IMG/VR virus record: IMGVR_UViG_2731957842_000007
Coordinates: 1 to 18,628 of that record
DNA from: a virus
Taxonomy: Duplodnaviria; Heunggongvirae; Uroviricota; Caudoviricetes
Length of the DNA stretch: 18,628 nucleotides
Reading direction: 5' to 3' (one strand)
Of this stretch, positions 1,009-18,019 are shown in pieces. Position numbers and translations under genes: made by a program. Below the pieces are notes generated by a model. The model was not told the origin of the DNA and searched no databases. It worked only from the letters and a program-made list of their open reading frames with translations. How positions within the stretch are numbered: position 1 is the stretch's first letter; every line of letters starts with the position of its first letter.

Positions 1009-1083
1009 GTCCTCTTAGTTAAATGGATATAACGAGCCCCTCCTAAGGGCTAATTGCAGGTTCGATTCCTGCAGGGGACACCA
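1009..1083 (+). tRNA. argW: tRNA-Arg (anticodon CCU), 75 nt with encoded CCA end
   Basis: Cloverleaf readable in sequence: acceptor stem GTCCTCT/AGGGGAC, anticodon loop CTCCTAA (anticodon CCT), T-arm GCAGG-TTCGATT-CCTGC, 3' CCA. An integrase gene follows 160 bp downstream. Confidence 0.9.
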
Positions 1084-1178
1084 TTTATCAGTTCGCTCTA
1101 ATCCGTATCAGTCCGCAAAATCCCCTGAATATCAAGCCTTCCGTAGATTCACAGTTCGTCATGGTTCGCGTCAGATCG

Positions 1179-1208
1179 TTGACAGCCGCACTCCATGACG
1201 GGTAAAAA
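1179..1208 (+). promoter_or_regulatory. Candidate integrase promoter: TTGACA (1179-1184), 18 bp spacer, TAAAAA (1203-1208)
   Basis: Perfect -35 consensus hexamer with an A/T-rich -10-like hexamer at suitable spacing, 37 bp upstream of the int ATG and within the expected attL arm. Confidence 0.3.
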
Positions 1209-1221
1209 GTGGATAAAATAA

Positions 1222-1245
1222 TTTTACCCACCGGATTTTTACCCA
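1222..1245 (+). repeat. Two direct copies of TTTTACCCA (1222-1230 and 1237-1245), 15 bp apart; the second overlaps the integrase ATG
   Basis: Exact 9 bp direct repeat read in sequence; position between the promoter-like element and the int start suggests recombinase or excisionase binding sites. Confidence 0.4.
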
Positions 1246-2402
1246 TGCTCACCGTTAAGCAGATTGAAGCAGCAAAGCCGAAAGAAAAACCATACCGCCT
1301 TCTCGATGGTAATGGCCTGTACCTTTATGTCCCTGTGTCAGGGAAAAAGGTATGGCAGCTTCGCTACAAGATTGACGGTAAGGAGAAAATCCTGACCGTC
1401 GGAAAATATCCGCTTATGACTTTGCAGGAGGCAAGGGATAAAGCATGGACCGCGAGGAAAGACATCTCGGTTGGCATCGATCCGGTAAAAGCGAAAAAGG
1501 CTTCGTCTAACAACAATTCCTTTAGCGCCATTTACAAGGAATGGTACGAGCACAAGAAGCAAGTCTGGTCAGTAGGCTATGCAACTGAACTTGCCAAAAT
1601 GTTTGATGACGACATTTTACCTATCATCGGCGGCCTTGAAATTCAGGATATTGAGCCTATGCAACTGCTGGAAGTAATCCGCAGGTTTGAAGATCGCGGT
1701 GCAATGGAGCGAGCCAACAAAGCACGCAGAAGATGCGGCGAGGTTTTCCGTTACGCTATTGTCACTGGTAGGGCTAAATATAACCCGGCACCTGACCTTG
1801 CTGACGCCATGAAAGGATACCGCAAGAAGAACTTCCCGTTTCTTCCTGCAGACCAGATCCCTGCATTCAACAAAGCACTGGCAACATTTTCAGGAAGCAT
1901 CGTATCGCTCATTGCGACTAAAGTTTTGCGCTACACAGCACTAAGAACGAAAGAGCTTCGCTCTATGCTATGGAAGAACGTCGATTTTGAAAACAGGATT
2001 ATCACTATCGACGCCAGTGTGATGAAGGGACGCAAAATTCATGTGGTTCCTATGTCAGACCAGGTGGTTGAACTTCTCACTACGCTAAACTCAATCACCA
2101 AACCAGTATCAGAGTTTGTTTTTGCCGGGCGCAACGATAAGAAGAAGCCAATTTGCGAGAACGCTGTACTGCTTGTGATCAAACAAATCGGCTATGAAGG
2201 TCTGGAAAGCGGTCACGGATTCAGGCATGAATTCAGCACGATTATGAACGAGCACGAATGGCCTGCTGATGCTATTGAAGTGCAACTGGCACATGCCAAC
2301 GGCGGATCTGTGCGCGGGATTTACAACCATGCTCAGTATCTCGATAAGCGCAGAGAAGTGATGCAGTGGTGGGCGGATTGGATTGATGAAAAGGTGGAGT
2401 GA
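1245..2402 (+). CDS. intS: Tyrosine site-specific integrase (phage integrase family), 385 aa
   Basis: Starts MLTVKQIEAAKPKEKPYRLLDGNGLYLYVP; C-terminal catalytic region contains R...HGFRHEF...Y motifs. The ORF-track GTG at 1209 is rejected in favour of the ATG at 1245, which gives the expected 385 aa length for the argW-associated integrase. Confidence 0.9.
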   Translation: MLTVKQIEAAKPKEKPYRLLDGNGLYLYVPVSGKKVWQLRYKIDGKEKILTVGKYPLMTLQEARDKAWTARKDISVGIDPVKAKKASSNNNSFSAIYKEWYEHKKQVWSVGYATELAKMFDDDILPIIGGLEIQDIEPMQLLEVIRRFEDRGAMERANKARRRCGEVFRYAIVTGRAKYNPAPDLADAMKGYRKKNFPFLPADQIPAFNKALATFSGSIVSLIATKVLRYTALRTKELRSMLWKNVDFENRIITIDASVMKGRKIHVVPMSDQVVELLTTLNSITKPVSEFVFAGRNDKKKPICENAVLLVIKQIGYEGLESGHGFRHEFSTIMNEHEWPADAIEVQLAHANGGSVRGIYNHAQYLDKRREVMQWWADWIDEKVE

Positions 2403-2419: not shown

Positions 2420-4414
2420 TTATTCAGCCTTAGCAAAAGTGGTCATAGTTGTTCCACTGAAAGTGAATGACCTGTCTGTAAGAGTAACATCCTGAATAGC
2501 AAAGTAATCGCCAACACCAGCGCCATTTACATAAAACTCGAATATCTCAGATGTATTTTCCGGAATAATATTATTAGCAATATAACACGTAGATAAAGAA
2601 CCATTTGTTGATGGTAAAGTTCCAAATAGCGTTGCATCCGATGCAGCATATATCGAACTGCTTAAATAAATATTTATATCAACATTACTCTCATAAGTAA
2701 CAATTAAGTACACCCGGTCGTTAACCTTCCACCCTCTGTCTTTTATCTTAGTATTAAGTGATAGCTTGTTAGAACTAGGGGTCGTTACGGTATTAATGGT
2801 TATTTTTGCTCCTATTGAGTTGTATCTGCTTCTGGTTACTGTATTACCAGTATTGTTCATTGTATAAAGGATTGCTCTGCTTTCTGCAAACGTCCTCATA
2901 TTAATCTTGCCTAAACAATCTCCTTCCATAACTTGTGGGCCAGACACAGTTGCACCAATATAACAATTAGTAAATACAGCATGAGCCCTGTTGTCAGTGC
3001 TTGATGCAAGTAATGAAAGTTTAAAGTTGCCCTGATCTGCAATCCAGCAACTATCAACCTTAACTACAGCATCATTGTCAAGAACAACAAACCTTCCTCC
3101 CTCATTGTAATATCCTACAAAAGCATTTACACCGCTTATTTTTACTACTCCATCTGGAACCGTAAAGATATCGCCTTGTATCGCTTCGCCATAGTACCCG
3201 CCAACAATATTGGTCACTCTGGTATTTAAGTACATGCCATGCCCAATGCCGAACTCAAGGTCACATCCAATTAAGCTTAAACCTTCAATAGGGGAAGTAC
3301 CAGAAGCATAAAAGGCATATTCACCGACCTTATTTGATGCAAATCCACAGTTATTGAACGTTACGCGGTTGTTAGCCCCAGCAAGGTGAACTCCGCGATT
3401 TGGCGCAGGAACAAAAGAACAGCAATCATAGGTATTAAGCCAGTCGTTTATAGTATAGAAGTTCGCCACCACGCCATTGATGAAACGACAATTATGGGTT
3501 CTTCCTAGGTGAACATATTGAATTCGGCAAGCATAGTTGGCGATGTTGTTCCCATCAACTGTAACGTGAGAGATAGATGTGCTACGTCTTATAGAGTCAG
3601 TTTCGTAGTACATGTTGACAACTGTCTCTCCAGTGAACCCACTCCCCGCAATAATGAATGACTTCTCAACGCCATCCCCGAATAGGTCAACAGTGCCTAT
3701 TGTTAAATCAACTGGTGACTTAACATAGTAAGTTCCTGCAGGGACAAACAGCCTCTTTCCTGCCGATAAAGCAACTGCTGCAGCAGCATTAAAGCTAGCT
3801 GAGTTATCTGCCGCTGGATCACCAGTAATGGGGAAAAATTGAGCAACAGAAATATAATCTGCTACCGTCACTTCGTACCATGGCAAAGCAGGAGATGACG
3901 GAAGAGTGCCACTACCACCGGTGTAGATTTTATTATTATACCACCACCAGTTATCAACATTAGATAACACCCCCTCCTGCCACACCCCCCCTAACGAGAA
4001 ATCAAGACCGTAAGAAGTAGCTATCTGACTTAATGATAATGTTGCTCCTCTGTCAGAAGCTAATTCTTGCCTTAATTGGTCAGGGTCATACTTCAGCACA
4101 TTAGGAAAATAGAACTGCTGTGCACCATACGCATCATAAACAGCCATAGAATGGCCTTGCACAGTTACGAACTTGGCAATCTGTCCGTTATATACCGGAT
4201 ATCCAGCAGCGTTAATGATGATTGGTTGCGAAACAGGAACGTGAGAGCCGTCTTCGTTCTCCACATAAACCTGAATCTGGTTTTCAGGATTTACAGGGTC
4301 AGTGTCAATTTTACCGATATAAATTTTGCCATTGGCTACGGCTTTAAAAGAACGAGCCATAGTGAAGAGTTGCGAAGGCATGCTTACCACAACATTTGCG
4401 GTGATATCTGACAT
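2420..4414 (-). CDS. Tailspike protein: P22-like N-terminal head-binding domain fused to a divergent C-terminal receptor-binding domain (probable glycan depolymerase)
   Basis: N-terminus [60 protein letters not shown] matches the conserved head-binding domain of P22 gp9-type tailspikes; the remainder has no P22 gp9 similarity I can see. Start placed at ATG 4414 (GGAG 9 nt upstream) rather than the ORF-track start at 4462. Confidence 0.85.
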
Positions 4415-4439
4415 TTCATTGCTCCAGACGAATGATATG

Positions 4440-4462
4440 ATGCAACCATGATGTGGTTGCAT
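4440..4462. promoter_or_regulatory. Palindromic operator-like site ATGCAACCA-TGATG-TGGTTGCAT in the tailspike/mnt divergent intergenic region
   Basis: 9 bp inverted-repeat arms around a 5 bp spacer; overlaps a TTGCAT -35-like hexamer (4457-4462) oriented towards mnt. Fits a ribbon-helix-helix repressor operator. Confidence 0.45.
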
Positions 4463-4535
4463 ACCGAAATGGTACTATTGAGTATTTATCCAGTAGGTTA
4501 CGATGCCATTCCACCCAACTGGTGAGGCATCAAGG

Positions 4536-4802
4536 ATGTACAGCAAATACGACGAGGCGCAGTTTCACTTGAGACTTCCGCATGAACTCCACGCGAAAAT
4601 TAAACAGCGCGCGAAGATGAATAACAGGTCGCTGAACTCAGAGATAATTGCAGCGATTGAAGAATCATTGGCTAAACAAAGCTCTGCATCCGTTTACATT
4701 GACGATGCAGAGCGTATGGCAGAACAACAATCTGATATGGTTAAGAAAATGGTTTTTGAAACGCTTAAGACCATGTATAGCAATAATAAAAAGGAAACAT
4801 AG
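4536..4802 (+). CDS. mnt: Mnt-like ribbon-helix-helix (Arc/MetJ family) repressor, 88 aa
   Basis: FHLRLPHELHAKIKQRAKMNNRSLNSEIIAAIEESL is a ribbon-helix-helix N-terminal fold; C-terminal DAERMAEQQSDMVKKMVFETLK resembles the P22 Mnt C-terminus as I recall it. ATG at 4536 with GGTGAGG 8 nt upstream; ORF-track start 4503 rejected. Confidence 0.7.
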   Translation: MYSKYDEAQFHLRLPHELHAKIKQRAKMNNRSLNSEIIAAIEESLAKQSSASVYIDDAERMAEQQSDMVKKMVFETLKTMYSNNKKET

Positions 4803-4872
4803 AAATCTAGTTTCCGGCTAAAATGGCATTGCCTTCATGATATCCTGTGAAAAACTAAGGAGAGTTAACCAT

Positions 4873-5358
4873 ATGAAAAAATCACTGTTAATTATCCCGC
4901 TTCTGCTGGTTGGATGCGCAAAAGTAAGTGACTATCAAGCAAGTTGCGAACAACGCTATCAAAAGCTTAGCGATATGGCTAATTGCCTTGATGCCAGAGT
5001 GAAGAACGACTCACGCATGGCATCAGCACCAACACCTAAGCTATATGTCCTTGCTGCAAAGATGCTCGGGCAAGGTGTCGATGAAGGCAAGATAAGTGAC
5101 GCACAGGCAAGACTTGAGCTTCAGAATCTTTATGTTCAATTACAAAGCCAAGAACAAGCCCAACAAATAGCACAAAGCCAAGCATTCCAGCAGGCTTTAT
5201 TGAATTATCAGGCTGTAAACACAATGCAAGCGATCGAGCAAAAAGCGAGACAGCCTGTTATAACTCAACCCTATCCAACACGAGTTGACACTTACACAAA
5301 CTGCAATTCAGGATTTGGAAACACCGTCACATGCAACAGTAGCAGCAACATTAGATAA
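4873..5358 (+). CDS. Predicted lipoprotein with Gln-rich C-terminal region, 161 aa; candidate superinfection-exclusion or moron protein
   Basis: MKKSLLIIPLLLVGC has a signal peptide and lipobox (LVGC); strong RBS AAGGAG 10 nt upstream of ATG 4873; occupies the position where P22-like phages carry sieA/immI genes. Confidence 0.7.
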   Translation: MKKSLLIIPLLLVGCAKVSDYQASCEQRYQKLSDMANCLDARVKNDSRMASAPTPKLYVLAAKMLGQGVDEGKISDAQARLELQNLYVQLQSQEQAQQIAQSQAFQQALLNYQAVNTMQAIEQKARQPVITQPYPTRVDTYTNCNSGFGNTVTCNSSSNIR

Positions 5359-5360
5359 AG

Positions 5361-7475
5361 CTATTCATATTCATTCATACCGCTTAACGAGGCGACAATA
5401 CCAGCTCTCGACAAGCGATTGAATTCATCGCTACCAATAGCATCGCGTATTGCTTTTACGGCGGCTTTATTTGCCATAAATCGGCGTTCCGCCGCCGCTA
5501 ATGCTTCTTTACTTCCGCCAGCTCTTACTGCTTTCGTGGCTTCCTGAACTGCTTTCTCTATCGCATATCGGCCGCTACGAGTGGTGGCAATTTTAGATAC
5601 AGCACCTTTTAACCCGGCGCCAACTAAAGCACCTGCGGCAGCGCCTGCAATGCCACCTCCTGCTCCACCAACAATGGCACCTGATGTTGAGTTGGCAATT
5701 GCATTTAACACTGTTGATGTGATGTTGGATAAACCGGCATCCAGATCGCGTAGTACATTGGCAGTTCTCCCTGTTCTTTCAATATACTGCTGAGGTTTCA
5801 CTGCTGCTCTTGCAAGAGTGCCATATACATCAGCAATTCTTCCGAGTTCTGAGGAATATCTGCTAATGGCTTTTACATTTTGTGGGGTAAGTATCCCTGC
5901 GATATGGTTAATTCCTGCTGCATCAGCTTTGCCACCACGTACACCATGCGAGATAGCATCTTGCAACATTGATGATATAGCAGGAACACGCTCTGATTCT
6001 GGCAGCGCGCGGATCATAGAATGGAATCCAGCAGGACCATTAAGACCTTTAGCTGACGATGCTTGAAGAGATTTTACTCCATTCGTAATCAGTGCATCTG
6101 TTGCCAAATCACGCCCAAAAACAGACTCTGCACTCTCTTGTGCGGACAGCCTCGCTTTAGACAGATCATTAGCTTTTTGCCAGTCATCAAAAAATCCGCC
6201 GTTTTCCGCCATTGTGCGCATATCATCAGTAATTGCCCGACGTATTTCCCCTGCTCTCCTTGCCGCATTTGCCTCTCCGCTACGCTTATATTTTTGCTCC
6301 GCATCAGCAAATTTCGCTCTCCATGCTTTCATGCCATCAAATGTTACTCCACCTTGATTGTTTGCCTGAACAAACTGTTTCATTTCAGGAGTAAGCGGTA
6401 TGCCAGCAGATCGCTCTGCCTGAATAACGGCATTACCATTTAGCATTCTTGCTTTTTGATTTGGCATTGTTGACCGCACGTCATCCCATGCCGCGCGCTC
6501 GGCATCCTTCATCTGATCAAGATTTTGAAGAATCCTTTGTTTTATAGCCGCACTTTTTTCTGATGCCGTTCCAGATGCGGCCCCAAATTCATCAAGGTTT
6601 CGACTTAACTTTGATGATATTTCGTTAAATGCTGCCTGATGGGCGTCCTGAACAATTCCTGGTGTTGATGCCAATGCGCCTTCGGCTTGTGCAATTCCAC
6701 GACTTCCAGATCGCATTCCTGGTGTTAATGCGTTTATATCAATTCCAGCAGACTCAGCCGCTTTTGCTACATCTTCGGACACATTAGCGGCCTGACTGGC
6801 AATTGACTGACGCCCAGCACCTGACTTTGCCATCCTGGAAACATCATTAGCAGAATTCAGTGCTGCACCACCAAGAGCCTGTGAAACCCTTGGCGCAATA
6901 ACGCGCCCGACACCTGAAAGAACGCCTTGAGCACCAATATTGATACCACCGTTAATGGCAGCATTTTGTGCAAAATCACCCTCCTGATTTGCAGCATCAG
7001 CAAGAGAACCTGCAATCATGTTTCCTGCGGAACCGATATCTCCAGCGAGCTTTGCTGGCGCTCCAGCAGCTTTTGCCGCTGTGCCAATTGGCAGGAGATA
7101 CCCACCAATTGTTTCACCGGCTTGCGCATAAGGGTCTGTCGGTCGATCGACTGGACGATAGACATCATCCAAAACCTTGGGGCCACCAAGCCCCTGGCTG
7201 ATTGCATTAATCAGACTTGCGCCACCCTGCAATACGTCAAATGGTATGTTTACCAGACCACGGCCAGCCTGTTCTGCAATTTGCCCTGCGCTTTGACCAC
7301 CAGTGAGCCAGTCAGTGGCTTTTCCTACCAGAGATTGTTCTTCTGGCTGCGATTGGTTTTGAGTGGATTGATCACCAGAAGACAGCATCTGAGCAATGCG
7401 ACGTGCTCCCTCAGTATCGCCGGCAGCATCAGCATTCCTTAACGCCGTCATCAACTGTTCGCGACTATAGGCCAT
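5361..7475 (-). CDS. DNA ejection/transfer protein, P22 gp16-like, 704 aa
   Basis: Third gene of a 7-20-16-like ejection operon on the minus strand; Gly/Ala-rich; start overlaps the stop of the upstream gene. Confidence 0.65.
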
Positions 7476-8749
7476 TACTGCCCTCCGAGATATTTATTAA
7501 TCAGGTCATCATCAGAAAGCTGCTGTTGAGACGGTTGTATGTCCTTCCCGTATTTCTGTTGCATACGTTTCTGAGCCATCTCAGTGGTTTTTATGATTGT
7601 TTTGATGGCTGCTCTGGCTGATTTTTCAGACTGATTTGGGGACAAACTACCAATAGCATCCATTACCTTTTGCCCCTCGGCATTACTTAAAGCCCCCATC
7701 CCTTTCATCTGCTGAATGCCAGATAAGAATCCCTGAGATTTCAGTGTGTCAACCAGAGTTTCTGTATCAGCAGCCTCTGTTCCTGGAATGAATCTACTCG
7801 ATAGTGGGTTTAGGTTTGTTCCGAAATATCCAGTGAATCCCGGGCTATTAAGAACTTTTGTAGCCGTCTCTATCGTTCTGGAAAGATTATCCATTCCAGA
7901 GTTGTACGCATCAGCCTTATCTCGCTTTGCCTGCTCCATAGCTTGCTGATTCTGCAATCTCTTGTCCTGCAATTCAGCAAGTTTTAAGGCATTAGTTTCA
8001 TTTGCGATGAGTCTGTCGTATTTCTTGTCCTCTAATTCCATCCGACGAAGATTGACATTTTGTTGCGCAATATTGTTGCTTGCCCACCCTCTGGCATTTG
8101 TCATGTCATTATTACGGATTGTTTCGTTAATTTTTTGCTGATCCTGCTGGCGACCAACCATCTTATCCTGAACAGCAAACGCCTTTTCTGGTCCAAGCGC
8201 ACCGAGAGACATAGTAGTCAGCATGTGTGATAGCTGCTCTGGATTCTGGATACCTGTCTGAATCATCCAGTCAGCATTAGCACCAACGCGATTTAACCTG
8301 TCCTTGTTGTCAGTAATGAATTTGCTGTAGGCTTCCGGTCCCTGAGAAAGAGCGACGTTAGCCCTCATGGCTAAATCGCCCATATCGTTGCGTTGCTGAT
8401 CATTAAGACCGGAAAACGCCTGTTGTGCCTGTGCAACAAACGCTGGATTTTCCTGGGCAAACTTAAATAGTCCCGATGGATCACCAGAAGCCCATGCATC
8501 AGCATGAACCTTATTGAACGCATTAATCGCTTCCTGTTGCTGTTCCTGCTTATAAATATCAGCAACTCCAGCCAGACCACGTAACGCGGTCAGACCAACG
8601 TTATTTGCACCTGAGCGAGCCAGTTCATTGTTTTCGCGGATCAGACCAAGCGTTGCGTTAATGTCGCTTGCCTTTGGCGCATTCTCATTTTGCGTACCGA
8701 TGCCAGCCAGAAAACCACCAGAATTAATACCCTGTTGCCACGTAGCCAT
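7475..8749 (-). CDS. DNA ejection/transfer protein, P22 gp20-like, 424 aa
   Basis: Position between gp7-like and gp16-like genes; Gln-rich low-complexity segments typical of ejection proteins; GGGG RBS upstream of ATG at 8749. Confidence 0.65.
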
Positions 8750-8759
8750 TGATTACCCC

Positions 8760-9452
8760 TTAAAACAACGAGCCAAGCAGACCAAGACCGCCTCCGATCG
8801 CAGCCCCCCACGGAGTTGATGAACCAATTAATTTCGCAAGTCCGGCCCCAGCAATAGCACCAGACGCACCTCCGCCAATAGCAGATTGCATTGCTGATGG
8901 TCTGTTGGCATTTGCCGCTGCAAGAGCCGCACTTTGCTGCGAAATCTGACTCATGTTGTTGGCATATGTCTGCCCGGCGTTTGCCTGACCTTGCAGTGCG
9001 CCAAGACCAATGTTTGCCAGATTCTGGTAGTTGTTCATCTGACCAGACAGCCACTGCTGACCAAGCGTTGGTGCGATTGTTGCTAACTGATTACCGGTTG
9101 CAGTGGAACCCAATCCACCTGTTGCTTCCGCTGCCGCCAGACTCTGATAGCGAGCCTGACCAGCAAGATCTTTGTACTGCTGAGAGTTGTAATACTGGTT
9201 TAGCGCCTGACCTTGCCCATCCAGAGACGATAAGTTCTCGAGGCTGCCGACATACTTCTCAGCCAGAGGAGTAAACGGTTTCAGGTTGTTCATGATGGTG
9301 TTGAACTGCTGATTTTGCAGGTCTGCGGCATACTTCTGAGCTTCTGCTGCATACTTTGCGCTTTTATCAGAACTGCCACCTTTCCCGCCTTTTTCAGGGC
9401 AATAAGGTTCCTCGCCGCGCAGTTTTCTGCCCAGCTTAAATGCATATAACAT
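8760..9452 (-). CDS. DNA ejection protein, P22 gp7-like, 230 aa
   Basis: MLYAFKLGRKLRGEEPYCPEKGGKGGSSDKSAKYAAEAQKYAADLQNQQFNTIMNNLKPF closely matches the P22 gp7 N-terminus as I recall it; length matches gp7 (229 aa). Confidence 0.8.
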   Translation of the reverse strand: MLYAFKLGRKLRGEEPYCPEKGGKGGSSDKSAKYAAEAQKYAADLQNQQFNTIMNNLKPFTPLAEKYVGSLENLSSLDGQGQALNQYYNSQQYKDLAGQARYQSLAAAEATGGLGSTATGNQLATIAPTLGQQWLSGQMNNYQNLANIGLGALQGQANAGQTYANNMSQISQQSAALAAANANRPSAMQSAIGGGASGAIAGAGLAKLIGSSTPWGAAIGGGLGLLGSLF

Positions 9453-9454
9453 GG

Positions 9455-9913
9455 CTATCTCCCGTGATTCAGGAAGTCGATTAGTTCTTCGCGTGTGGCG
9501 CTGTAAAAAGTCACGTCATCCACGCCTTTAAAGTATTTCTTGATGGTTCCTACACGATTAAGGCCAATCATTGCGCAGTAAATCTGCCCGTGGCGGAATT
9601 TGCGTGCGGCGAACGATGTGACGCACTGAACGGTGGTGTTAGTCAGAATGTATCGCCAGAACGCCAGCCCGATTTCCTTGCTGAAGCCACGAACCTCTGG
9701 CAGGTACATGGCGTGGCAATCGAATGTCAGCGGCTGAATCTCCTGATAGTAAACAATGCCGCCAAACTGACCGTACACGTTAACCTCAAAGTAACGGCAT
9801 TCAGGCTTGTAGTCGTATCCATCACCGTTGTTGCTTCCGGCAATAATGTCAGGGTGATTTCCGACTGCTTCGATCAGGTCGATGTTTCGCGTTGGTTTGA
9901 ACTGAATCATCAC
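9455..9913 (-). CDS. P22 gp14-like protein, 152 aa
   Basis: [35 protein letters not shown] matches gp14 of P22-like phages; sits between the needle and gp7 genes as in P22. Confidence 0.7.
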
Positions 9914-10758
9914 TGCTCCGCGATTATCTTGATGGTTGTGGCAGTAAACGCCGCACCATTCGACTGAATGGTTAACGTGCTGCCATTTGTGGCAAGAAAG
10001 CCGTCTTTATCCACGCTGAAGAACGTAGCTAACAAGATGTTATCGGTTGTTGTCGCCGAGTTGCGACTGCTTACCAGTGTGTCAGGAACAGAGCCGGAAA
10101 AGGTTAGCTGCATTGACCTGTTTGCGGTTCCGCTGGGCCACGTCCCGACAATCGACAGCTTGAAGAACAGGGTTTTGTTCTCGTTGAACACAACCATCTT
10201 GTTGTTAACGGTGTCGAAGAATGGTGCCAACGAGCCGGATGACGGCGTGAGCGTTTTCAGCAGGCTAACAAGGTTGGTCGGCGCTGTCGGGATGGTTACT
10301 GATACGCCAGAGTAAACAACCTCTGACTTCTTGCGTGTGGTTGCATACTCCAGAGCATCAATGCGCGTTTCATGGTCTGAAACCTGCGACTCCAGCGACT
10401 GAAGTCTGGTATCAAGCGACGCAATATCGCTTTCATTCTGAGTGATTCGTGTTTCATGTTCCTGAAGAGTTGATTCTGCCTGACTGATTCGCTCCTCATG
10501 ATTAACAAGCGTTGCTTCCGCAGCAGAAATTCGCTGCTCATGGTCAGCGAGAATCACATCCTGCTCATCGTTCCTGACTTGTGCGTCATAAGCGCCCTGT
10601 CCGGCCTCGTTGGCCTTGTTAGCCACGTTACCAACATCAGTGCCCTGTGCGATAACGTAAAGCAGATACGACTGCGAGAAGATATTGCGTGGAAGGACTG
10701 ATGTGTCGAGCCGTGTAGCCTGAATGATTACCGGCACATTGAGATTCGAATCCGCCAT
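9910..10758 (-). CDS. Tail needle protein, P22 gp26-like, with a divergent C-terminal knob domain, 282 aa
   Basis: N-terminus [43 protein letters not shown] matches the conserved gp26 N-terminal domain; central heptad-like repeats ([43 protein letters not shown]) fit the trimeric coiled-coil needle; C-terminal 120 aa differ from P22. Confidence 0.8.
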
Positions 10759-11552
10759 TACTCAATCCTTATCTGAGCGCCAGACAGAGTGACAGGTGAC
10801 TTCGTGATAACGCGCAATTTGAAACCAATGTTTTTCCTGATGCGCCCTACTTTCTTCCACAAAACGCGTTTGTCGTAAACGAACGGTTCATTCTGCTCAA
10901 TCATCTGCTCACGCCCGTAATTGATGCCGTCAGTGGTTGCAGAGAGGAACAGGCGGTCGGCGTACTGAGCTACGCCAGTGGATGATTCCACCTCCAGATC
11001 GAAGCATCTGGCGTTATCCGCTTTGAACAGTGGAGTAAACAGCAGGTGTTCCTGTTGCTTGTCGTACTGGCTGCTGATATCGAACTGCAATTTCCCGGTC
11101 ACGGACTCCAGCTTATCGCCGCACGTTATCTGATTGCCTTCATAAATGAAGTCGATAGCGCGGTACACATCGTCATACAGGCCTGTTTTCAACACACACC
11201 ATTGCGGACCATTGGCGCTTGAAGATGCGTCGTACACGAGGACGTGGCGCGGAAGGTGGATAATCAGCAGTTCATGCGCATCAAATCGCAGCGATTCCAT
11301 CACACCATCAGCCAGTTCATCAGCAGTGTAGGAGCGAAGAATTTTCTCAATGCTCGCGCTGGCGATTGGTGATACCTGACCTGATCCGATGATGTATACA
11401 GACGGCGCACCCGTTGCCGGATTGCTGATAAACGCATACGAATCAGCGAATGGCGTTTTGCAGTAAGTTCCGGCAATGCCTTTCTGCACCATCAGCGATG
11501 GTTGTGCGACATACAAAGCGGCACCATCGGAGGTCAACATGACAGTAGTCAT
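10758..11552 (-). pseudogene. 5'-truncated gp10-like tail accessory gene (C-terminal 264 codons only), at the deletion junction
   Basis: Occupies the gp10 position upstream of gp26; P22 gp10 is about 470 aa but this ORF is 264 aa. The codon immediately upstream of its ATG (11553-11555 on the minus strand) is TAA, and its first codons are antisense to the start of the N-like gene. Confidence 0.6.
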
Positions 11553-11838
11553 TACATATCTGGCTGACGATAACGCCAGAAATCGCCGCAGAGCACGCAG
11601 ACAGGCTCAACGTGAACAGGCAATGCAAGAGCAGCGACTGGCGCGAAAAATTGCGCTAAAGCTCTCTGGTTGCGTCAGAGCAGATAAAGCAGCATCACTC
11701 GGAAGCCTTCGCTGCAAGAAGGCAGAAGAAGTCGAGCGTAAACAGAATCGTATTTACTACCGCAAGCCACGCAGTGAAATGGGTGTGACTTGCTCAGGCC
11801 GCCAGAAAATGAAATTAGGCAGCAAACCACTTATTTGA
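11539..11838 (+). CDS. N-like transcription antiterminator with an arginine-rich motif, 99 aa
   Basis: MTVVITYLADDNARNRRRARRQAQREQ resembles the N-terminal arginine-rich RNA-binding motifs of lambda N and P22 gp24 (which begins MTVITY). GGAGG 5 nt upstream of ATG 11539; first gene of the rightward operon. ORF-track start 11476 rejected. Confidence 0.55.
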   Translation: MTVVITYLADDNARNRRRARRQAQREQAMQEQRLARKIALKLSGCVRADKAASLGSLRCKKAEEVERKQNRIYYRKPRSEMGVTCSGRQKMKLGSKPLI

Positions 11839-11846
11839 GGTGAGAT

Positions 11847-12317
11847 ATGACAAAATCATGGAGCGTACCTTTTCCTGAATCAGAAACTGAACATGATGGA
11901 ATGCCTGTTTTCTGGAGATTCCAGGCGACAGTTGAAGAAGATGGGATAAAAATATTCGCACTTCAATATATAGCTTTTCATCAGACAGAGCATTATGCAT
12001 GGTTGGTTCCTGCGCATTGGATTGTTAATTTTAAACCAGCACCAAATCAGTGGTTACAGGAATGGAAACAAAGGAGAAATAGATATGCAATTAAGAAAGT
12101 AGCAAAAAATGCAGAAAGATCTTTTGCATTCCCAACGAAGAAACTTGCCATTGAGAGTTTATTGCGCCGGAAGAAATACCATTTAATGAGAATCAAACAA
12201 GATTTGGCTGTTGTATCAACTCTTGTTGATGGGATGAAGAATATTGATACATCAACACCAGATATTGAATATAACTTTGGACACAACCAAGAAACAGAAA
12301 ATTGGGTATTCTACTAG
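11847..12317 (+). CDS. Hypothetical protein, 156 aa, in a visibly A+T-rich segment; moron candidate
   Basis: RBS GAGGTGAG before ATG 11847; Trp- and Lys-rich soluble protein with no family I recognise; followed immediately by a terminator. Confidence 0.6.
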   Translation: MTKSWSVPFPESETEHDGMPVFWRFQATVEEDGIKIFALQYIAFHQTEHYAWLVPAHWIVNFKPAPNQWLQEWKQRRNRYAIKKVAKNAERSFAFPTKKLAIESLLRRKKYHLMRIKQDLAVVSTLVDGMKNIDTSTPDIEYNFGHNQETENWVFY

Positions 12318-12341
12318 GCCGCATAGTCGGCCTTTATTTTT
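12317..12341 (+). terminator. Rho-independent terminator after the 156 aa ORF
   Basis: Stem GGCCG (12317-12321), loop CATAGT, stem CGGCC (12328-12332), followed by TTTATTTTT. Confidence 0.6.
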
Positions 12342-12363
12342 GGCATAAACAACAGAGGCTAAC

Positions 12364-12660
12364 ATGGAATTTAAAGGTACTGAAGGTAAGTGGGAAATAA
12401 TGATGGATGGCGATGAGATTAAAATCATCCAGGCAGACTCACTTGAAAATGGCGCAGGCTGGCGTTCGTATATTGCAATCTGTGAGGAAGTTCAATGTAT
12501 TGAAGATGCCAATCTAATAGCGGCAGCACCTGACCTTCTCGAAGCACTTCAGTTATTACTTAAGCAATCCAAAAATAGAACAACGACAACATATCCAGAA
12601 TGGTATGGAGCTGTTAATAAAGGTCTTGCAGCAATCAGCAAGGCTCTGGGAGGTGAATGA
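12364..12660 (+). CDS. Hypothetical protein, 98 aa
   Basis: ORF with an AGAGG RBS-like element upstream; its stop overlaps the start of the next ORF (ATGA), indicating translational coupling. Confidence 0.5.
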   Translation: MEFKGTEGKWEIMMDGDEIKIIQADSLENGAGWRSYIAICEEVQCIEDANLIAAAPDLLEALQLLLKQSKNRTTTTYPEWYGAVNKGLAAISKALGGE

Positions 12661-12869
12661 TGTGCGAGTTTTATGAAGCAGATATCAAACGCCCAGAAAT
12701 GGCAAGTGATGCGACATTACGTGATTACTTCGCTGCTAAGGCTATGGCAGCAATAGTGCGCAGATGGGACGGACATTCCTTTGGCGGTGGACAGAATTCA
12801 CCACAGTACAAAGAATTAGCAGATGATGCCTACTTTATTGCTGATGCCATGCTCAAAGCTCGCGAATAA
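12657..12869 (+). CDS. Hypothetical protein, 70 aa, translationally coupled to the upstream 98 aa ORF
   Basis: ATGA start/stop overlap at 12657-12660; no recognisable family. Confidence 0.45.
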   Translation: MMCEFYEADIKRPEMASDATLRDYFAAKAMAAIVRRWDGHSFGGGQNSPQYKELADDAYFIADAMLKARE

Positions 12870-12964
12870 GCACTGTGTATTCATTCCAACGAGTGAATAC
12901 ACGGAGCAATGTCGCTCGTAACTAAACAGGAGCCGACTTGTTCTGATTATTGGAAATCTTCTTT

Positions 12965-12992
12965 GCCCTCCAGTGTGAGGGCAATTTTTTTT
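12965..12992 (+). terminator. Rho-independent terminator upstream of the coiled-coil gene
   Basis: Stem GCCCTC (12965-12970), loop CAGTGT, stem GAGGGC (12977-12982), followed by AATTTTTTTTT. Confidence 0.55.
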
Positions 12993-13004
12993 GATGGAGG
13001 ATAT

Positions 13005-13973
13005 ATGAGTGAAGTAACAGATTTAGTTGTTATTGAAAAAGCAAATGCAATGACTGTATTTCAGTCTGCCGACCAGATTGAAGAAATCCTTCAAAAGGTA
13101 GAACGTGAAGTTATGTCCTTTGTGCCTGATATCACAACGGCAAAGGGCAGAAAGGAGGTCGCTTCTCTGGCGTATAAAGTTGCGCAGACGAAAACATATC
13201 TCGATGGTCTTGGCAAAGACCTTGTTGCTGAACTGAAGGAAATTCCAAAGCTAATTGATGCCAACCGCAAGACAGTGCGCGATCGCCTTGATGAACTGAA
13301 AGCCAAGGCACGCCAGCCTCTTACTGATTATGAAGAGGAACAGGCGCGGATTAAAGCTGAAGAAGAAGCTAAGGCAGCAGCTGAAGCTCTCGCAAAGCAA
13401 ATTGAGTCTGACCATGAAATAGCGATTTTGATGGATCGCGAATTTGACCGCCAAAGAGAAGAGGCAAGACTCAAAGCGGAGCAGGAAAAGCGAGAGCATG
13501 AAGAACGCTTAAAAAGAGAAGCTGAAGAGAAAGCCAGAGCTGAAGCCGAAGCAAAGGCAAAAGCCGAAATTGAAGCAGCAGCAAGGCGAGAAGCAGAAGC
13601 TAAGGCCGCAGCGGAACGTGCAGAGCGTGAACGCATTGAAGCCGAGCAACGAGCACAGCGCGAAGCAAAAGAGGCAGCAGAACGAGCTGAAAGAGAAAAG
13701 CAGGCAGCAATTGAAGCAGAACGCAGAAAAGCACAGGAGGAGGCTGAACGAATCCGTCGCGAGGTTGAAGCAAAAGAGCAAGCCAGAATAGCAGAAGAAA
13801 AAAGAATCAAGGAAGAAGAAGAGCGTAGAGCAAAGGATAAAGCTCACCGGAAAGAAGTAAATAACAAAATACTTGCTGACCTTATCAAGGTTGGTGCATC
13901 AGAAGATGTTGCTAAAAATATCATAACAGCCATCGTAAAAGGCGAAGTATTCGCAACAAAAATAACCTACTAA
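13005..13973 (+). CDS. Hypothetical coiled-coil protein with a long Glu/Ala/Lys/Arg-rich repetitive central region, 322 aa
   Basis: ATG 13005 preceded by GGAGG; the ORF-track start 12909 lies upstream of the terminator and is rejected. Central 200 aa are AEAKA/EAERR-type repeats; globular N- and C-terminal segments. Confidence 0.6.
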   Translation: MSEVTDLVVIEKANAMTVFQSADQIEEILQKVEREVMSFVPDITTAKGRKEVASLAYKVAQTKTYLDGLGKDLVAELKEIPKLIDANRKTVRDRLDELKAKARQPLTDYEEEQARIKAEEEAKAAAEALAKQIESDHEIAILMDREFDRQREEARLKAEQEKREHEERLKREAEEKARAEAEAKAKAEIEAAARREAEAKAAAERAERERIEAEQRAQREAKEAAERAEREKQAAIEAERRKAQEEAERIRREVEAKEQARIAEEKRIKEEEERRAKDKAHRKEVNNKILADLIKVGASEDVAKNIITAIVKGEVFATKITY

Positions 13974-13997
13974 TAAAACCAACATAAGGAACCACCC

Positions 13998-14129
13998 ATG
14001 ATTTACGCAATCGCGGGAGGAGCTCGCATGGGTGCCTTCCAACTAAATGAATCTTTACTTGAACGAATCACCCGTAAATTACGTGACGGATGGAAAAGAG
14101 TTGAGGTCTTATTATGCGCAATGAAATAG
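13998..14129 (+). CDS. cIII-like small protein (FtsH protease inhibitor family), 43 aa
   Basis: MIYAIAGG...ESLLERITRKLRDGWKR matches the conserved core of lambda CIII as I recall it; AAGGA RBS upstream; located upstream of erf as in lambdoid PL operons. Confidence 0.5.
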   Translation: MIYAIAGGARMGAFQLNESLLERITRKLRDGWKRVEVLLCAMK

Positions 14130-14266
14130 CCATCAATCACCAGATGCTTCGTGCTGCACAGAACAAAGCAGTAATAGCCAGATTTATTGGTGATTCAAAA
14201 ATGTGGCTTGAAGCAAATAAAGCGATGAAATCAGCTATCAACCTTCCGTGGTATCGCAGGAAATGA
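14114..14266 (+). CDS. Kil-like small protein (putative), 50 aa
   Basis: IARFIGDSKMWLEANKAMK resembles the lambda Kil family from memory; start overlaps the cIII-like ORF, and its stop overlaps the next start. Confidence 0.35.
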   Translation: MRNEIAINHQMLRAAQNKAVIARFIGDSKMWLEANKAMKSAINLPWYRRK

Positions 14267-14421
14267 GTTTCACAGATAACTGGTCAGACGAAGAATTCAT
14301 TCGTCAGATGAAAGAATTAATCGGTAACGAAGGAGATATTCATGTCACTTGCAACCACAGTGAAGGAGAGCAAGTTACAGAGACGCATGTACACGCAGAA
14401 AGCTCTCTGGTATCGCCATAA
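14263..14421 (+). CDS. Hypothetical small protein, 52 aa
   Basis: Chained by ATGA overlap to the upstream small ORF and lying directly upstream of erf; no family recognised. Confidence 0.3.
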   Translation: MSFTDNWSDEEFIRQMKELIGNEGDIHVTCNHSEGEQVTETHVHAESSLVSP

Positions 14422-14522
14422 TGGTGACCGCGAAGGAATGCGGGTATGCCTTAATTTGTCCCGAGTCGAAGTATTAAATCAGCGTTATTTCCTTGGGCCG
14501 TGTCCATTCTGAGAACAATCAT

Positions 14523-15128
14523 ATGAGCAAAGAATTTTACGCAAGACTGGCAGCTATTCAGGAGAATCTGAACGCGCCAAAGAATCAGTACAACTCATTC
14601 GGCAAATATAAATACAGAAGCTGCGAAGATATTCTTGAAGGCGTTAAGCCGTTACTGAATGGTCTGTTTTTATCAATCAGCGATGAAGTTGTGTTGATTG
14701 GTGATCGGTATTACGTGAAAGCCACGGCAACTATTACCGATGGCGAAAACAGTCATACGGCAACTGCTCTTGCACGAGAGGAAGAAAGCAAGAAAGGAAT
14801 GGATTCTGCACAAGTTACTGGAGCTACAAGCTCTTATGCGCGCAAGTATTGCCTCAATGGTTTGTTCGGCATTGATGATGCGAAAGATGCAGATACCGAC
14901 GAACATAAACATCAGCAGAACGCAGCAGCAAAGCAATCAAAACCATCACCTACACCTGAACAGGTTCTAAAAGCATTCACTGACGCAGCAATGCAAAAAA
15001 ACACCGTGGAAGAGCTTAAACAGGCGTTCGCCAAAGCGTGGAAGATGCTCGAAGGAACACCGGAGCAGCACAAAGCGCAGGACGTTTACAACATCAGACG
15101 AGACGAATTAGAAGGAGCTGCTGCTTAA
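14523..15128 (+). CDS. erf: Erf-family single-strand annealing recombinase, 201 aa
   Basis: MSKEFYARLAAIQENLNAPKNQYNSFGKYKYRSCEDILEGVKPLLNGLFLSISDEVVLIGDRYYVKATATITDGENSHTA matches P22 Erf as I recall it. ORF-track TTG start at 14493 rejected in favour of ATG 14523. Confidence 0.85.
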   Translation: MSKEFYARLAAIQENLNAPKNQYNSFGKYKYRSCEDILEGVKPLLNGLFLSISDEVVLIGDRYYVKATATITDGENSHTATALAREEESKKGMDSAQVTGATSSYARKYCLNGLFGIDDAKDADTDEHKHQQNAAAKQSKPSPTPEQVLKAFTDAAMQKNTVEELKQAFAKAWKMLEGTPEQHKAQDVYNIRRDELEGAAA

Positions 15129-15511
15129 TGGCACATTCGATTACTGTAAGACTAAACAAGCCCGCAAGAGAGTTTCAGGCCGGGGAAAATATCGGATTCA
15201 ACATCCGTGCTGGCGTTCAGTATTACGATCGCCAGACAAAAAAGAAAGAATGGACAAACTACAGCGCCGTTGTATTTGCCAAGCCGGGAGCGCAAGCGGA
15301 TTACTACCGTAGTGTTCTTGTTGAAGGTGGCATTGTGGAAATTACCGGAGAAAACATCAGGGTTGATGTTTATCAGGGGCAAAATGGTCAATCAATCACT
15401 CTTGAATTACTGAATGCAAAGATTGGATTTGCAACTTCAGGAAACAGCCAACAGCAGCAAAGTAGCAATCATCAAAATCATCCTGAATACGACGATTCAA
15501 TCCCCTTCTAG
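15128..15511 (+). CDS. SSB-like single-stranded DNA-binding protein with an acidic C-terminal ...DDSIPF tail, 127 aa
   Basis: ATG overlaps the erf stop (TAATG); the C-terminus EYDDSIPF matches the conserved SSB tail motif (DDDIPF); the N-terminal region is compatible with an OB fold. ORF-track start 15038 rejected. Confidence 0.6.
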   Translation: MAHSITVRLNKPAREFQAGENIGFNIRAGVQYYDRQTKKKEWTNYSAVVFAKPGAQADYYRSVLVEGGIVEITGENIRVDVYQGQNGQSITLELLNAKIGFATSGNSQQQQSSNHQNHPEYDDSIPF

Positions 15512-15534
15512 ATTAGCAAAATAAGGATTCCATT

Positions 15535-15828
15535 ATGCCAGCGCCTCTGTATGGTGCGGATGACCCGCGCCGCTGTTCCGGCAATTCCGTATCGGAGGTG
15601 CTGGATAAATTCAGGAAAAACTACGACCTGATAATGTCTCTACCGCAGGAAACGAAAGAGGAAAAGGAATTTCGCCATTGTATATGGCTTGCAGAGAAAG
15701 AAGAACGCGAGCGAATTTACCAGACATCAATCCGCCCATTCCGCAAAGCCACATATACCCACTTCCCTGAAATTGACCCGCGCCTGCGTAATTACCGCTC
15801 ACGCTATGGCGCTATCAGTAATGACTGA
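15535..15828 (+). CDS. Hypothetical protein, 97 aa
   Basis: ORF with an AAGGA RBS-like element upstream of ATG 15535; no family recognised. Confidence 0.45.
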
Positions 15829-15838
15829 GGAATTTACC

Positions 15839-16003
15839 ATGAGAGGACTTGCATACAATCCCGGCATTCTTCCGGCAGAAATGATTATTCGCCAACGCGT
15901 AAAGCCAATGCCATCGAGAGAGGAATTGCTTAAGAGAAATTCTTTTCCATCAGTGAATCAAAACAAATATCTGAATGCGATGTTGCGGAGTGGGAAGAAA
16001 TGA
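15839..16003 (+). CDS. Hypothetical small protein, 54 aa (alternative start at 15821)
   Basis: GAGG 8 nt upstream of ATG 15839; its stop overlaps the next start (ATGA at 16000-16003). The 5' part of the ORF-track ORF 15689..16003 overlaps the upstream gene and is rejected. Confidence 0.3.
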
Positions 16004-16476
16004 AACAAATGTCACTAATTGAGATGGATGGATTCCTGAAAGGTAAATGCATCCCCCGAGATTTAAAGGTTAACGAAACAAACGCTGAATATCTGGTGCG
16101 TAAATTTGCTGAAGCGGAGGCCAAGTGCGCGGAGATGGCAGCGGAAAATGCGGGGCTGAAGTCTGGCGCTATGGACGAAATCAAGGTTATCAACCGTGGA
16201 GGGCAGGCATATTGCGTAAAAGATGGAGTGCAAGTTAATCCCATATATGCAAGAGGGTGGAATGATTATCGCGCAAAGTCTATGCAATCAGACACCCCAG
16301 CCACCGATGCTTTCCTGGCTGAAGTCAGGGCTAAGGCGTTTGATGACCTTTGCGCGGCGTTCGTTAAGCACGCGTCGGTGTCCGGGCTGGACGATGGCGA
16401 CTGCGTTACGGTGAAAGAGGCGACTGACGCCCTGCTGCATTGTGCGGAACAGCTTCACAAGGGAGTGCATTCATGA
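16000..16476 (+). CDS. Hypothetical protein, 158 aa
   Basis: Translationally coupled on both sides (ATGA overlaps at 16000 and 16473); no family recognised. Confidence 0.5.
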
Positions 16477-16706
16477 GCAACCTACTACCATGTCCATTCT
16501 GTGGCGGTGCAGCGCACGTTGCCAGCGAAGCAGATCACCCTGAATATGGCTCTGGCGGTCGATTCTATTTCGTTCGATGCGGTACGTGTCGCGCTCAATC
16601 TGGTAGCAAATATGCAGCGCCTGGAAATGACTGCGCGATTTTTTATTCAGAGGTTAGAGCAGAGTGGAATCAACGAGCAAAGGAGGCGAACAGTGAGCAA
16701 GATTGA
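16473..16706 (+). CDS. Lar-family restriction alleviation-like protein, 77 aa
   Basis: [12 protein letters not shown]...CGTC contains the CPFCG-type Cys motif characteristic of Lar-family small proteins; ATG overlaps the upstream stop. ORF-track start 16440 rejected. Confidence 0.5.
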   Translation: MSNLLPCPFCGGAAHVASEADHPEYGSGGRFYFVRCGTCRAQSGSKYAAPGNDCAIFYSEVRAEWNQRAKEANSEQD

Positions 16707-17268
16707 CTATCAGGCACTGCGTGAGGCGGCGCAGAACGCGAAAGATTTAGGTGGGATTAAGAATTACAAGCGAGGCGAGCAAGCTGTTGCCGAATTTGAG
16801 TCCCTGATAACGCCACACATTGTGCTGGCACTGCTGGATGAACGGGAAAGAAACCAGCAATACATCAAACGCCGCGACCAGGAGAACGAGGATATTGCGC
16901 TAACGGTGGGGAAACTGCGTGTTGAGCTGGAAGCCGCAGAGAAGCGCAACGCAAAATTACAAAGCGAGAATGCATACATCCGCAACCGGTACAAAGAACT
17001 GGACCTGTTAATCGGGAAAAACATTCTGGTCATGCAGGCTGCGATTATCGAATGGCAGGCAACTGGCGACGCTAAGAGCGGACTGGCATGGATTTATAAC
17101 ACACTGTTTGGCCCTGGCGAATTGCCGGACGAATCTGAGAAAGATGCTCAGGCCTACTTTAATCGCAAATATGCACCGATTGACGAAAAGCTTATGGAGC
17201 TTCACAAGTGGTTTTGGGAACAAAGTGAAGCCGAGCGCGCCGCCGGCATTCGCATCAAAGGAGAGTGA
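16693..17268 (+). CDS. Hypothetical coiled-coil protein (possibly Ead/Ea22-like), 191 aa, GTG start
   Basis: AGGAGG 6 nt upstream of GTG 16693; the ORF-track start at 16501 would overlap the Lar-like gene for 200 bp and is rejected. Confidence 0.5.
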   Translation: MSKIDYQALREAAQNAKDLGGIKNYKRGEQAVAEFESLITPHIVLALLDERERNQQYIKRRDQENEDIALTVGKLRVELEAAEKRNAKLQSENAYIRNRYKELDLLIGKNILVMQAAIIEWQATGDAKSGLAWIYNTLFGPGELPDESEKDAQAYFNRKYAPIDEKLMELHKWFWEQSEAERAAGIRIKGE

Positions 17269-17269
17269 T

Positions 17270-17920
17270 ATGAGCACTATCACTAAAGAACGTATCGAAT
17301 TGTTCATTAAATCCCCGCTTGAAAACGGACTTACTCGTGGCGAACAAATGGAACTGGCACGAATTGCACTGGCATCACTGGAACGCGAACTGATTCGCCA
17401 CGAGCATGCCAAATGGTCTGACTCCACATTTGGCTGCGTTGGCCCTATTGGTCCGCTGAAACATCTCTCAAAAGAGGCACTGGAAGCCGCAGCCGAACCA
17501 GACGATCTTAGCGAGTGGGCTGATATGCAGTTTCTGTTGTGGGATGCACAGCGCCGTGCTGGCATCAGCGATGCTGAAATTACCGCTGCTATGGAAGATA
17601 AATTGAAGATCAACATGGAGCGCCAGTGGCCTGAGCCAAAAGATGGTGAGCCTCGCTTGCACATTAAAGAACCCGGCAACTATCCGGTAACTCCGGATGG
17701 TTGGATAAGCTGTAGTGAGCGAATGCCTGAAAAGAATCGGAACGTGCTTATTTCGGTGAATTTCGATAGCTCTCTGGTTGAACCGCTAATATGCTCCGCA
17801 CGCTATACCGGAAGCACCTTTCGGCGCGGAGATGCAACGATTAAGCCGGGTAATGGTATTGAGCAAGCAACTCACTGGATGCCGCTACCGGAACCGCCGC
17901 AGGAGGTAAACCGTGGCTAA
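17270..17920 (+). CDS. DUF551-like phage protein, 216 aa
   Basis: AAAGGAGAG RBS, ATG 2 nt after the upstream stop; C-terminus ...PDGWISCSERMPE...THWMPLPEPP resembles the DUF551 signature. ORF-track start 17108 rejected. Confidence 0.55.
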   Translation: MSTITKERIELFIKSPLENGLTRGEQMELARIALASLERELIRHEHAKWSDSTFGCVGPIGPLKHLSKEALEAAAEPDDLSEWADMQFLLWDAQRRAGISDAEITAAMEDKLKINMERQWPEPKDGEPRLHIKEPGNYPVTPDGWISCSERMPEKNRNVLISVNFDSSLVEPLICSARYTGSTFRRGDATIKPGNGIEQATHWMPLPEPPQEVNRG

Positions 17921-17982
17921 CCTGCAACTTGCCGTCAAAGGTGAATAACAATCCTCGCACTCGCGGGGATTTCTTTTATCTG

Positions 17983-18007: not shown

Positions 18008-18019
18008 ATGGAGATGATT

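Follow-up and report, generated by a model that had tools for sequence, protein, structure and literature searches.

A cluster of candidate IntS arm sites at the intS promoter, in a highly probable attL region of a KplE1/HK620-type prophage at argW

The window (the whole stretch of DNA analysed, 18,628 nt) has the order yfdC-argW-intS...torI, and its first 2.5 kb match the yfdC-argW-intS region of Escherichia coli (Table 1). In the complete E. coli genomes, the tRNA side was found in all 5426 of 5426 and intS in ∼1860. The intS gene reads away from the tRNA gene, and its promoter sits inside attL, between the core and the ATG. Its product contains the Pfam domains Arm-DNA-bind_3 (residues 2-86, E = 2e-25), Phage_int_M and Phage_integrase; residues 1-86, the arm-binding domain, are 100% identical to those of K-12 IntS. 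The interval from intS to torI is occupied by a defective P22-like prophage, with genes for a tailspike, ejection proteins and a needle, a head-closure gene that is truncated, and some early genes. The published K-12 study (Panis et al., PLoS Genet 2010, PMC2951348) names the 16-nt sequence CTGCAGGGGACACCAT as the duplicated KplE1 core. When a second core, and hence attR, was sought across the window, none was found, the window ending at the torI stop codon; since the core is present only once, attR would sit just past the window end. In VG48B2, the closest genome, a second core copy does follow torI.

Insertion at argW, the 16-nt core, the direction of intS, the 2 + 3 layout of the TorI sites and the presence of the cognate IntS and TorI are all as in the KplE1/HK620-type argW module. 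Positions 1069-1247 very probably represent the attL of a prophage of this type, recombination arm and integrase-gene control region in one. The first-pass annotation had proposed an attL arm of a KplE1-family prophage, a reading borne out by argW, the core, the IntS/TorI pair and the sequence identity with K-12. The prophage remnant retains an intact recombination module (intS, torI and attL) and could probably still excise, provided that the attR beyond the window is intact. For annotation purposes, attL fixes the left end of the prophage.

Table 1. Features of the attL region and of the associated recombination genes, in window coordinates
Feature	Position	Strand	Basis and remarks
argW, tRNA-Arg(CCT), integration target	1009-1083	+	ARAGORN; Rfam tRNA, 63.4 bits; K-12 argW annotation
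attL core CTGCAGGGGACACCAT, 16 nt, crossover region	1069-1084	+	Sole copy in the window
TorI sites I1, I2	1087-1114	+	Cores GTTCG 1091-1095 and GTCCG 1111-1115; repeat TATCAGTTCGC / TATCAGTCCGC; published block 2464409-2464436 (PMC2951348)
TorI sites I3, I4, I5	1150-1177	+	Cores GTTCG 1154-1158, GTTCG 1164-1168 and GATCG 1174-1178; published block 2464472-2464499 (PMC2951348)
PintS -35 hexamer TTGACA	1179-1184	+	6/6 consensus; matches the published K-12 -35
PintS -10 hexamer TAAAAA	1203-1208	+	4/6 consensus; 18-nt spacer 1185-1202
Arm-type copy a, GGGTAAAAA, over the -10	1200-1208	+	Minus-strand 9-mer TTTTACCCG at 1199-1207; fits the published description of P'1 (autorepression site)
Arm-type copy b, TGGATAAAA, one mismatch, spans the start site	1210-1218	+	Minus-strand reading TTTTATCCA
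intS transcription start sites T/A	1214/1215	+	K-12 primer extension mapped onto the window; -31/-30 from the ATG
Arm-type copy c, TGGGTAAAA (plus strand TTTTACCCA)	1222-1230	-	First repeat of the first-pass annotation; +8 to +16 of the transcript (+1 = A1215)
Probable Shine-Dalgarno GGA, 9 nt 5' of the ATG	1233-1235	+	RBS annotation of Sf6 record X59553; CGGA invariant in the phage alignment
Arm-type copy d, TGGGTAAAA (plus strand TTTTACCCA)	1237-1245	-	Second repeat of the first-pass annotation; +23 to +31; last base is the A of ATG 1245-1247
intS, tyrosine integrase, 385 aa	1245-2402	+ (same strand as the tRNA)	382/385 identical to K-12 IntS
torI, excisionase (RDF)	18428-18628	+	Product 66/66 identical to K-12 TorI

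The alignment with the K-12 argW-intS region that had been suggested as a check on the locus proved gap-free: positions 1000-1270 differ from strain MG1655 by six SNPs, all located within 1099-1170, and the stretch 1172-1270, which covers the -35, the -10, the start sites and the four arm-type copies, is base-for-base identical. Three of the six SNPs affect I2, I3 and I5, each time outside the core, and here the window has the HK620/Sf6 alleles. Given this alignment, with the A of the ATG at 2464567, window coordinates equal published coordinates minus 2463322. The attL clone used in K-12 extends from -223 to +64 relative to the ATG (2464344-2464630; PMC2951348), and the attL substrate of the in vitro excision assays reaches window position 1268, as deduced from the primer sequences, so that it takes in all four arm-type copies.

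The K-12 promoter PintS has been described as a -35 TTGACA and a -10 TAaAAa; mutation of the TAAAAA region left the promoter dead, and primer extension yielded two starts, at T and A, at 2464536/2464537 (PMC2951348). The window bases at the corresponding positions 1214 and 1215 are likewise T and A. Hexamers, spacing (within 16-18 bp) and start position are those of a sigma-70 promoter, A1215 being 7 nt past the -10. The perfect TTGACA with a -10 at 18 bp that had been picked out from the letters is therefore the real intS promoter, as the K-12 primer extension was performed on identical sequence. TTGACA by itself is no more frequent than expected by chance (8 occurrences in the window versus 13.3 expected); the composite TTGACA-N18-TAAAAA, in contrast, was obtained in 0 of 200 shuffles, which places it beyond chance. 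The PintS -10 is without the usual final T, and its spacer is of 18 nt.

Regulation of this promoter has been studied in K-12. In that work, a pattL-gfp fusion gave 6368 units without IntS, 1270 units with IntS, and 1201 units when TorI was overproduced in an intS background, i.e. ∼5-fold repression by each of the two proteins (PMC2951348). This agrees with the proposal of the first-pass annotation that the int promoter overlaps attL and is repressed by the integrase and by TorI. All P' sites are stated to contain TAAA, and autorepression by IntS was attributed to P'1, the site overlapping the -10. Single mutations at P' sites other than P'1 still allowed 4.0- to 5.2-fold repression, while those changes in P'1 that altered IntS binding also cut or abolished promoter activity (PMC2951348). 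Mutation of either I4 or I5, which adjoin the -35, abolished repression by TorI, these being the only two TorI sites needed for it. The authors of that study concluded that repression results from IntS bound close to the -10 and from TorI bound close to the -35 (PMC2951348). From the identity of the sequences, we infer that the promoter, its starts, both repressions and the roles of I4, I5 and the -10 site would hold in the present strain too. The sequences of the P' sites were also sought in other papers citing KplE1, none of which gives them.

The first-pass annotation had pointed to two exact 9-bp repeats of TTTTACCCA, the second of them over the ATG; both are present as described, with a period of 15. 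It had missed two further copies on the opposite strand, at 1199-1207 and 1210-1218. Taken together, the motif (T)GGGTAAAA occurs four times in 47 bp, twice forward and twice inverted, giving the plus-strand layout GGGTAAAAA-g-TGGATAAAA-taa-TTTTACCCA-ccggat-TTTTACCCA-TG. Exact GGGTAAAA is found three times in the 18.6-kb window, always within 1200-1244; the fourth copy, with one mismatch, lies at 1211-1218. Pairs of GGGTAAAA within 60 bp were seen in 0 of 300 random sequences, so that the cluster too exceeds chance. The 9-mer repeat taken by itself is not significant, since a random sequence of 18.6 kb contains ∼2.2 cases of an exact 9-mer recurring within 30 bp and the window contains 4 independent ones; the case for arm sites therefore rests on the cluster, on the copies in attR and on conservation. 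As regards attR, two further copies of GGGTAAAA, 11-12 bp apart and overlapping the RDF stop codon, are found in the attR/P arm of each of K-12, VG48B2 and HK620, and the GGGTAAAA pair recurs in the P arm of four phages of Klebsiella and Erwinia. The window itself ends in AATGGGTAA, whose last six bases, GGGTAA, open the first arm-type copy of attR before the window end interrupts it.

Conservation was analysed in a distant set of Klebsiella and Erwinia phages, ∼75% identical in the region, and in a wider set of 15 sequences that adds enterobacterial prophage loci. Invariant in the Klebsiella and Erwinia phages are TTGACAGCC, CGGGTAAAAA, TTTACCC (both copies), CGGA and TTTTACCCATG, the intervening sequence being variable, and the alignment of 15 sequences gave the same conserved blocks. 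Considered copy by copy, a shows CGGGTAAAAA invariant in the distant phages and GGGTAAA across the wider set; b reads GGGTAAA or GAGTAAA in the relatives; TTTACCC of c is invariant in four distant phages; and TTTTACCCATG of d is invariant in the phage alignment. The TorI-site pentamers are also conserved in the distant relatives, the first four cores being invariant and the fifth varying in its middle bases in the Klebsiella/Erwinia phages; in the window, the last of these sites abuts the -35. All 15 of the 15 genomic relatives scanned lie at tRNA-Arg(CCT). The -35 TTGACA is invariant in both alignments and present in 20 of the 23 upstream regions listed, the other three being loci with TTGACG or TTGACT. 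These belong to a class in which the recognisable copies read GGGCAT/ATGCCC and not GGGTAAA/TTTACCC (Tatumella punctata, Izhakiella capsodis and Xenorhabdus budapestensis). In this GGGCAT class the RDF-type repeats differ too, the equivalent of copy d is ATGCCCAC followed by ATG, and the -35, the 18-nt spacer and a CATATT in the first copy are kept. In all relatives examined, including the three with a switched motif, a -10-like hexamer (TAAAAA, TAAATT or CATATT) lies within the first arm copy at an 18-nt spacing. Residues N23, Y26, Q38, T51 and K54 of the arm-binding domain separate the motif classes, with only three class-B sequences and a separation confounded by ancestry. The Xenorhabdus relatives are without one arm copy and without CCGGA. 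Within E. coli, the 89-bp promoter/arm block 1172-1260 was found in 1895 of 5426 complete genomes (about a third), 1054 records being 100% identical.

Occurrence of a motif in the two arms and in either orientation is what characterises arm-type sites; those bound by TorI differ in sequence and are confined to one arm. In addition, the motif is distinct from the core, the integrase has an arm-binding domain, and the copies are conserved or change together while the spacers drift. We infer from motif identity, distribution and conservation that copies c and d, the two repeats first noticed, would be arm sites for IntS.

These data are consistent with the following scheme. RNA polymerase would use TTGACA and TAAAAA and start at 1214/1215, producing a leader of 30-31 nt. 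The N-terminal arm-binding domain of IntS would recognise (T)GGGTAAAA, at four copies in attL and at two in attR, at the torI end. The arm copies would serve mainly to hold IntS on the arm, bridging to the core at 1069-1084 when the complexes for excision and integration form. With the -10 hexamer lying within copy a, IntS bound there would exclude RNA polymerase, leading to ∼5-fold negative autoregulation and keeping intS expression low and steady. TorI at I4/I5 would block the -35, with ∼5-fold repression, and during excision TorI at I1-I5 would bend the DNA. An IHF site with at most one mismatch was searched for in the spacer between I2 and I3 and was not found, and a 2010 abstract in Virology is said to describe attL as being without a functional IHF site. 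Over the whole window, 17 IHF-like matches were counted, below the 23.9 expected by chance; the one near-match in the region of the repeats, at 1203-1215 on the minus strand, overlaps copies a and b and was discarded as a candidate.

Two other readings concern the promoter and the excisionase. Exactly the pair ATGACG (1195-1200) and AATAAT (1217-1222) is annotated in the Sf6 record X59553 of 1991, and if this were the working intS promoter the repeats would lie at the start site. The pair was indeed the sole promoter-like match of a consensus scan over 900-1500 (9/12, 16-nt spacer); that scan, however, demands a T at the last -10 position, so TTGACA/TAAAAA is absent from its output, and one such site is the level obtained with shuffled sequences (mean 1.1). 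The K-12 start at 1214/1215 lies upstream of AATAAT, and mutation of the TAAAAA region abolishes promoter activity (PMC2951348). In the relatives, moreover, ATGACG is replaced by TTTGGC or TTAAGC and AATAAT by AACTAC or AATAAA, while TTGACA and the 18-nt spacing are conserved, all of which makes this promoter very unlikely. That the TTTTACCCA repeats might instead be bound by TorI would fit the usual form of RDF sites, namely short direct repeats in a single arm, and TorI does repress PintS (PMC2951348). Nevertheless, TorI has its published sites in the GTTCG/GTCCG/GATCG blocks (1087-1114 and 1150-1177), and it is the mutation of I4/I5 that abolishes the repression (PMC2951348). The TTTTACCCA motif occurs in both orientations and also in attR, there without any GTTCG block, and in the relatives the arm motif set and the TorI motif set are distinct sequences; binding of TorI to the repeats is accordingly an even poorer prospect than the alternative promoter.

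It could also be considered that the repeats act in the RNA, a leader structure or a bound factor controlling intS translation, or that the conservation reflects a protein. Copies c and d are both transcribed (+8 to +31) and lie one on either side of the likely Shine-Dalgarno, the second of them reaching the ATG. Folding of the leader together with the early coding sequence, however, is no better than that of its shuffles (-5.3 kcal/mol, z = 0.55), the Rfam search returned the tRNA only, the complementary copies at 1200-1208 are upstream of the start site and thus outside the RNA, the same motif in the non-transcribed attR argues for a DNA site, and the Xenorhabdus relatives that lack one copy and CCGGA speak against a role at the RNA level. 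Translational control through these repeats is therefore as improbable as use of ATGACG/AATAAT. As for a protein, a minus-strand ORF of 54 aa spans 1088-1252, an equivalent gene, gp28, is annotated in the Klebsiella phage vB_Kpn_Chronis, and the relatives have stop-free minus-strand stretches of 35-58 codons. Yet the variable columns are spread evenly over the codon positions (38, 39 and 40 of 55), indels of a single base are present within the ORF, and the conservation takes the form of short blocks coinciding with the repeat motifs and does not follow the reading frame. The chance that a small protein explains the conservation is close to negligible.

Arm-type binding of IntS thus being the preferred reading of the repeats, their place in the control of intS has to be considered separately. 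The first-pass annotation regarded them as candidate binding sites for that control. That they are binding sites is supported by the integrase arm-type motif; they are not sites for TorI, and individually they are not the operators, as the P' mutants kept repression. Since single P' mutants other than P'1 remained repressed, the repeats would mainly serve intasome assembly; a regulatory role for copies c and d is unproven, and the context in which they have been demonstrated is recombination. The leader copies c and d might still form, with the forward copies a and b, a redundant and cooperative IntS operator; it might clamp the forward pair to the inverted pair or close a small loop between them, or it might present a roadblock to polymerase immediately 5' of the ATG. 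Mutating one site at a time would leave an operator role of this kind, which we regard as possible though rather unlikely, hidden. If it were true, the position of the last copy right at the start codon, conserved even in relatives whose motif differs, would be a selected regulatory feature.

The feature as a whole is real, functional and already known, a textbook example of its kind, the identical DNA having been dissected experimentally in K-12. By showing the -10 within the first arm copy, at a constant spacing of 18 nt, in all the relatives examined, the comparison lends modest support to the published view that an integrase promoter lying within attL is autoregulated.

When compared with KplE1 (CPS-53), the present element has the same tRNA, the same 16-nt core and the same five TorI pentamer cores, TorI being 100% and IntS 99% identical; the prophage behind intS is nevertheless a different and larger P22-like remnant, that of K-12 being of 10 kb. 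The P' arm in the attP of HK620 and Sf6 (Lederbergvirus) is 97% identical to the window, and the P-arm copies of these phages overlap the RDF stop codon. The HK620 GenBank record contains attP repeat_regions at the equivalents of 1199-1220 and 1220-1245, and a promoter at that of 1179-1228; the Sf6 record differs in annotating another -35/-10 pair from that of K-12 PintS. In these free phages the arm belongs to attP, and phage DNA takes the place of the tRNA half. The P' arm of lambda attP (P'1-P'3) likewise contains several short arm-type sites, distinct from the core and bound by the N-terminal domain of the integrase, and the sites for its RDF are direct repeats, as for TorI. Unlike the lambda P' arm, the arm described here has four copies, two forward and two inverted; and lambda int has PI and PL as its promoters, with no autoregulation through attL, whereas here the promoter is inside the arm. 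IntS, with its Arm-DNA-bind_3 domain, is presumably a P4-like integrase. In the satellite phage P4, as discussed in the K-12 study, Int controls its own gene by binding close to the start site of int, and expression is also reduced by the RDF (Vis), a situation like that of IntS and TorI; the action proposed for Vis is on the mRNA, that of TorI being on DNA adjoining the -35 (PMC2951348).

The window ends on the stop codon of torI, the excisionase (recombination directionality factor, RDF) gene, as AAT GGG TAA. In related genomes the last six of these bases, GGGTAA, open the first attR copy of the arm-type motif GGGTAAA. The RDF stop codon and an integrase site therefore share bases, an arrangement kept in HK620 as well as in four phages of Klebsiella and Erwinia. 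Upstream, ∼20 nt 5′ of torI, lies an exact duplicate of a 16-mer from the T-arm of argW, TTGCAGGTTCGATTCC, which contains the pentamer GTTCG and is immediately preceded by a hairpin and T-run. A second match to TTGCAGGTTCGATTCC arose in none of 200 shuffles, and K-12, the closest genome (VG48B2) and HK620 also carry this copy. In the GenBank record of HK620, a cII-activated 'phage integration' promoter is annotated at the equivalent position.

Features of the window and of related integrase loci
Feature	Position
argW T-arm 16-mer	1054-1069
Duplicate of the 16-mer	18393-18408
Hairpin and T-run	18359-18386
Last six bases (GGGTAA), ending in the torI stop codon	18623-18628
One-mismatch arm-motif copy in intS	1615-1623 (within 1613-1623)
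Prophage remnant	2420-18628
Truncated head-closure gene	10758-11552
Differences from K-12 in attL	1099, 1100, 1108, 1138, 1150, 1170
Switched motif (Tatumella punctata, L018; Izhakiella capsodis, L025; Xenorhabdus budapestensis, L029)	∼70 nt before integrase ATG

Three relatives, likewise located at tRNA-Arg(CCT) and with integrases 58–72% identical to IntS, have the arm motif GTGGGCAT in place of GGGTAAA (L018, L025 and L029). Their RDF-type repeats differ too (e.g. GTAAAC), and the promoter-in-arm layout is unchanged. Motif class tracks arm-domain residues 23, 26, 38, 51 and 54, an association confounded by ancestry, with just three loci in the switched class. The loci of Xenorhabdus littoralis (L020) and X. 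hominickii (L022) have just three arm copies upstream of the integrase ATG, two forward and one inverted; the last is separated from the ATG by a single base and CCGGA is missing, so that, judged from the sequence, the integrase leader would be very short and would have no obvious Shine-Dalgarno. In the X. hominickii locus, a long tandem array, (AAATCCCTT)n, also separates the tRNA from the RDF-type sites.

The copy of the arm motif inside intS, TTTTACCTA, probably arose by chance, as the window would be expected to hold about four matches with one mismatch; in the GenBank record of HK620 the corresponding position is marked as an additional attP repeat.

What remains of the prophage, ∼17.5 kb, is defective and P22-like (Lederbergvirus-type). 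The remnant retains the tailspike, the ejection proteins and the needle, together with some early genes; its head-closure gene is truncated, the profile match spanning only positions 214–470 of 486, and it lacks capsid, terminase, lysis and immunity genes. No complete E. coli genome covered at least 80% of the window.

When attL was compared with that of K-12, six differences were seen, none of which hits a GTTCG-type pentamer; those at 1108, 1150 and 1170 occupy non-core positions of TorI sites I2, I3 and I5, respectively. The window has the same alleles as Sf6 at 1138, 1150 and 1170, and HK620 shares two of these.
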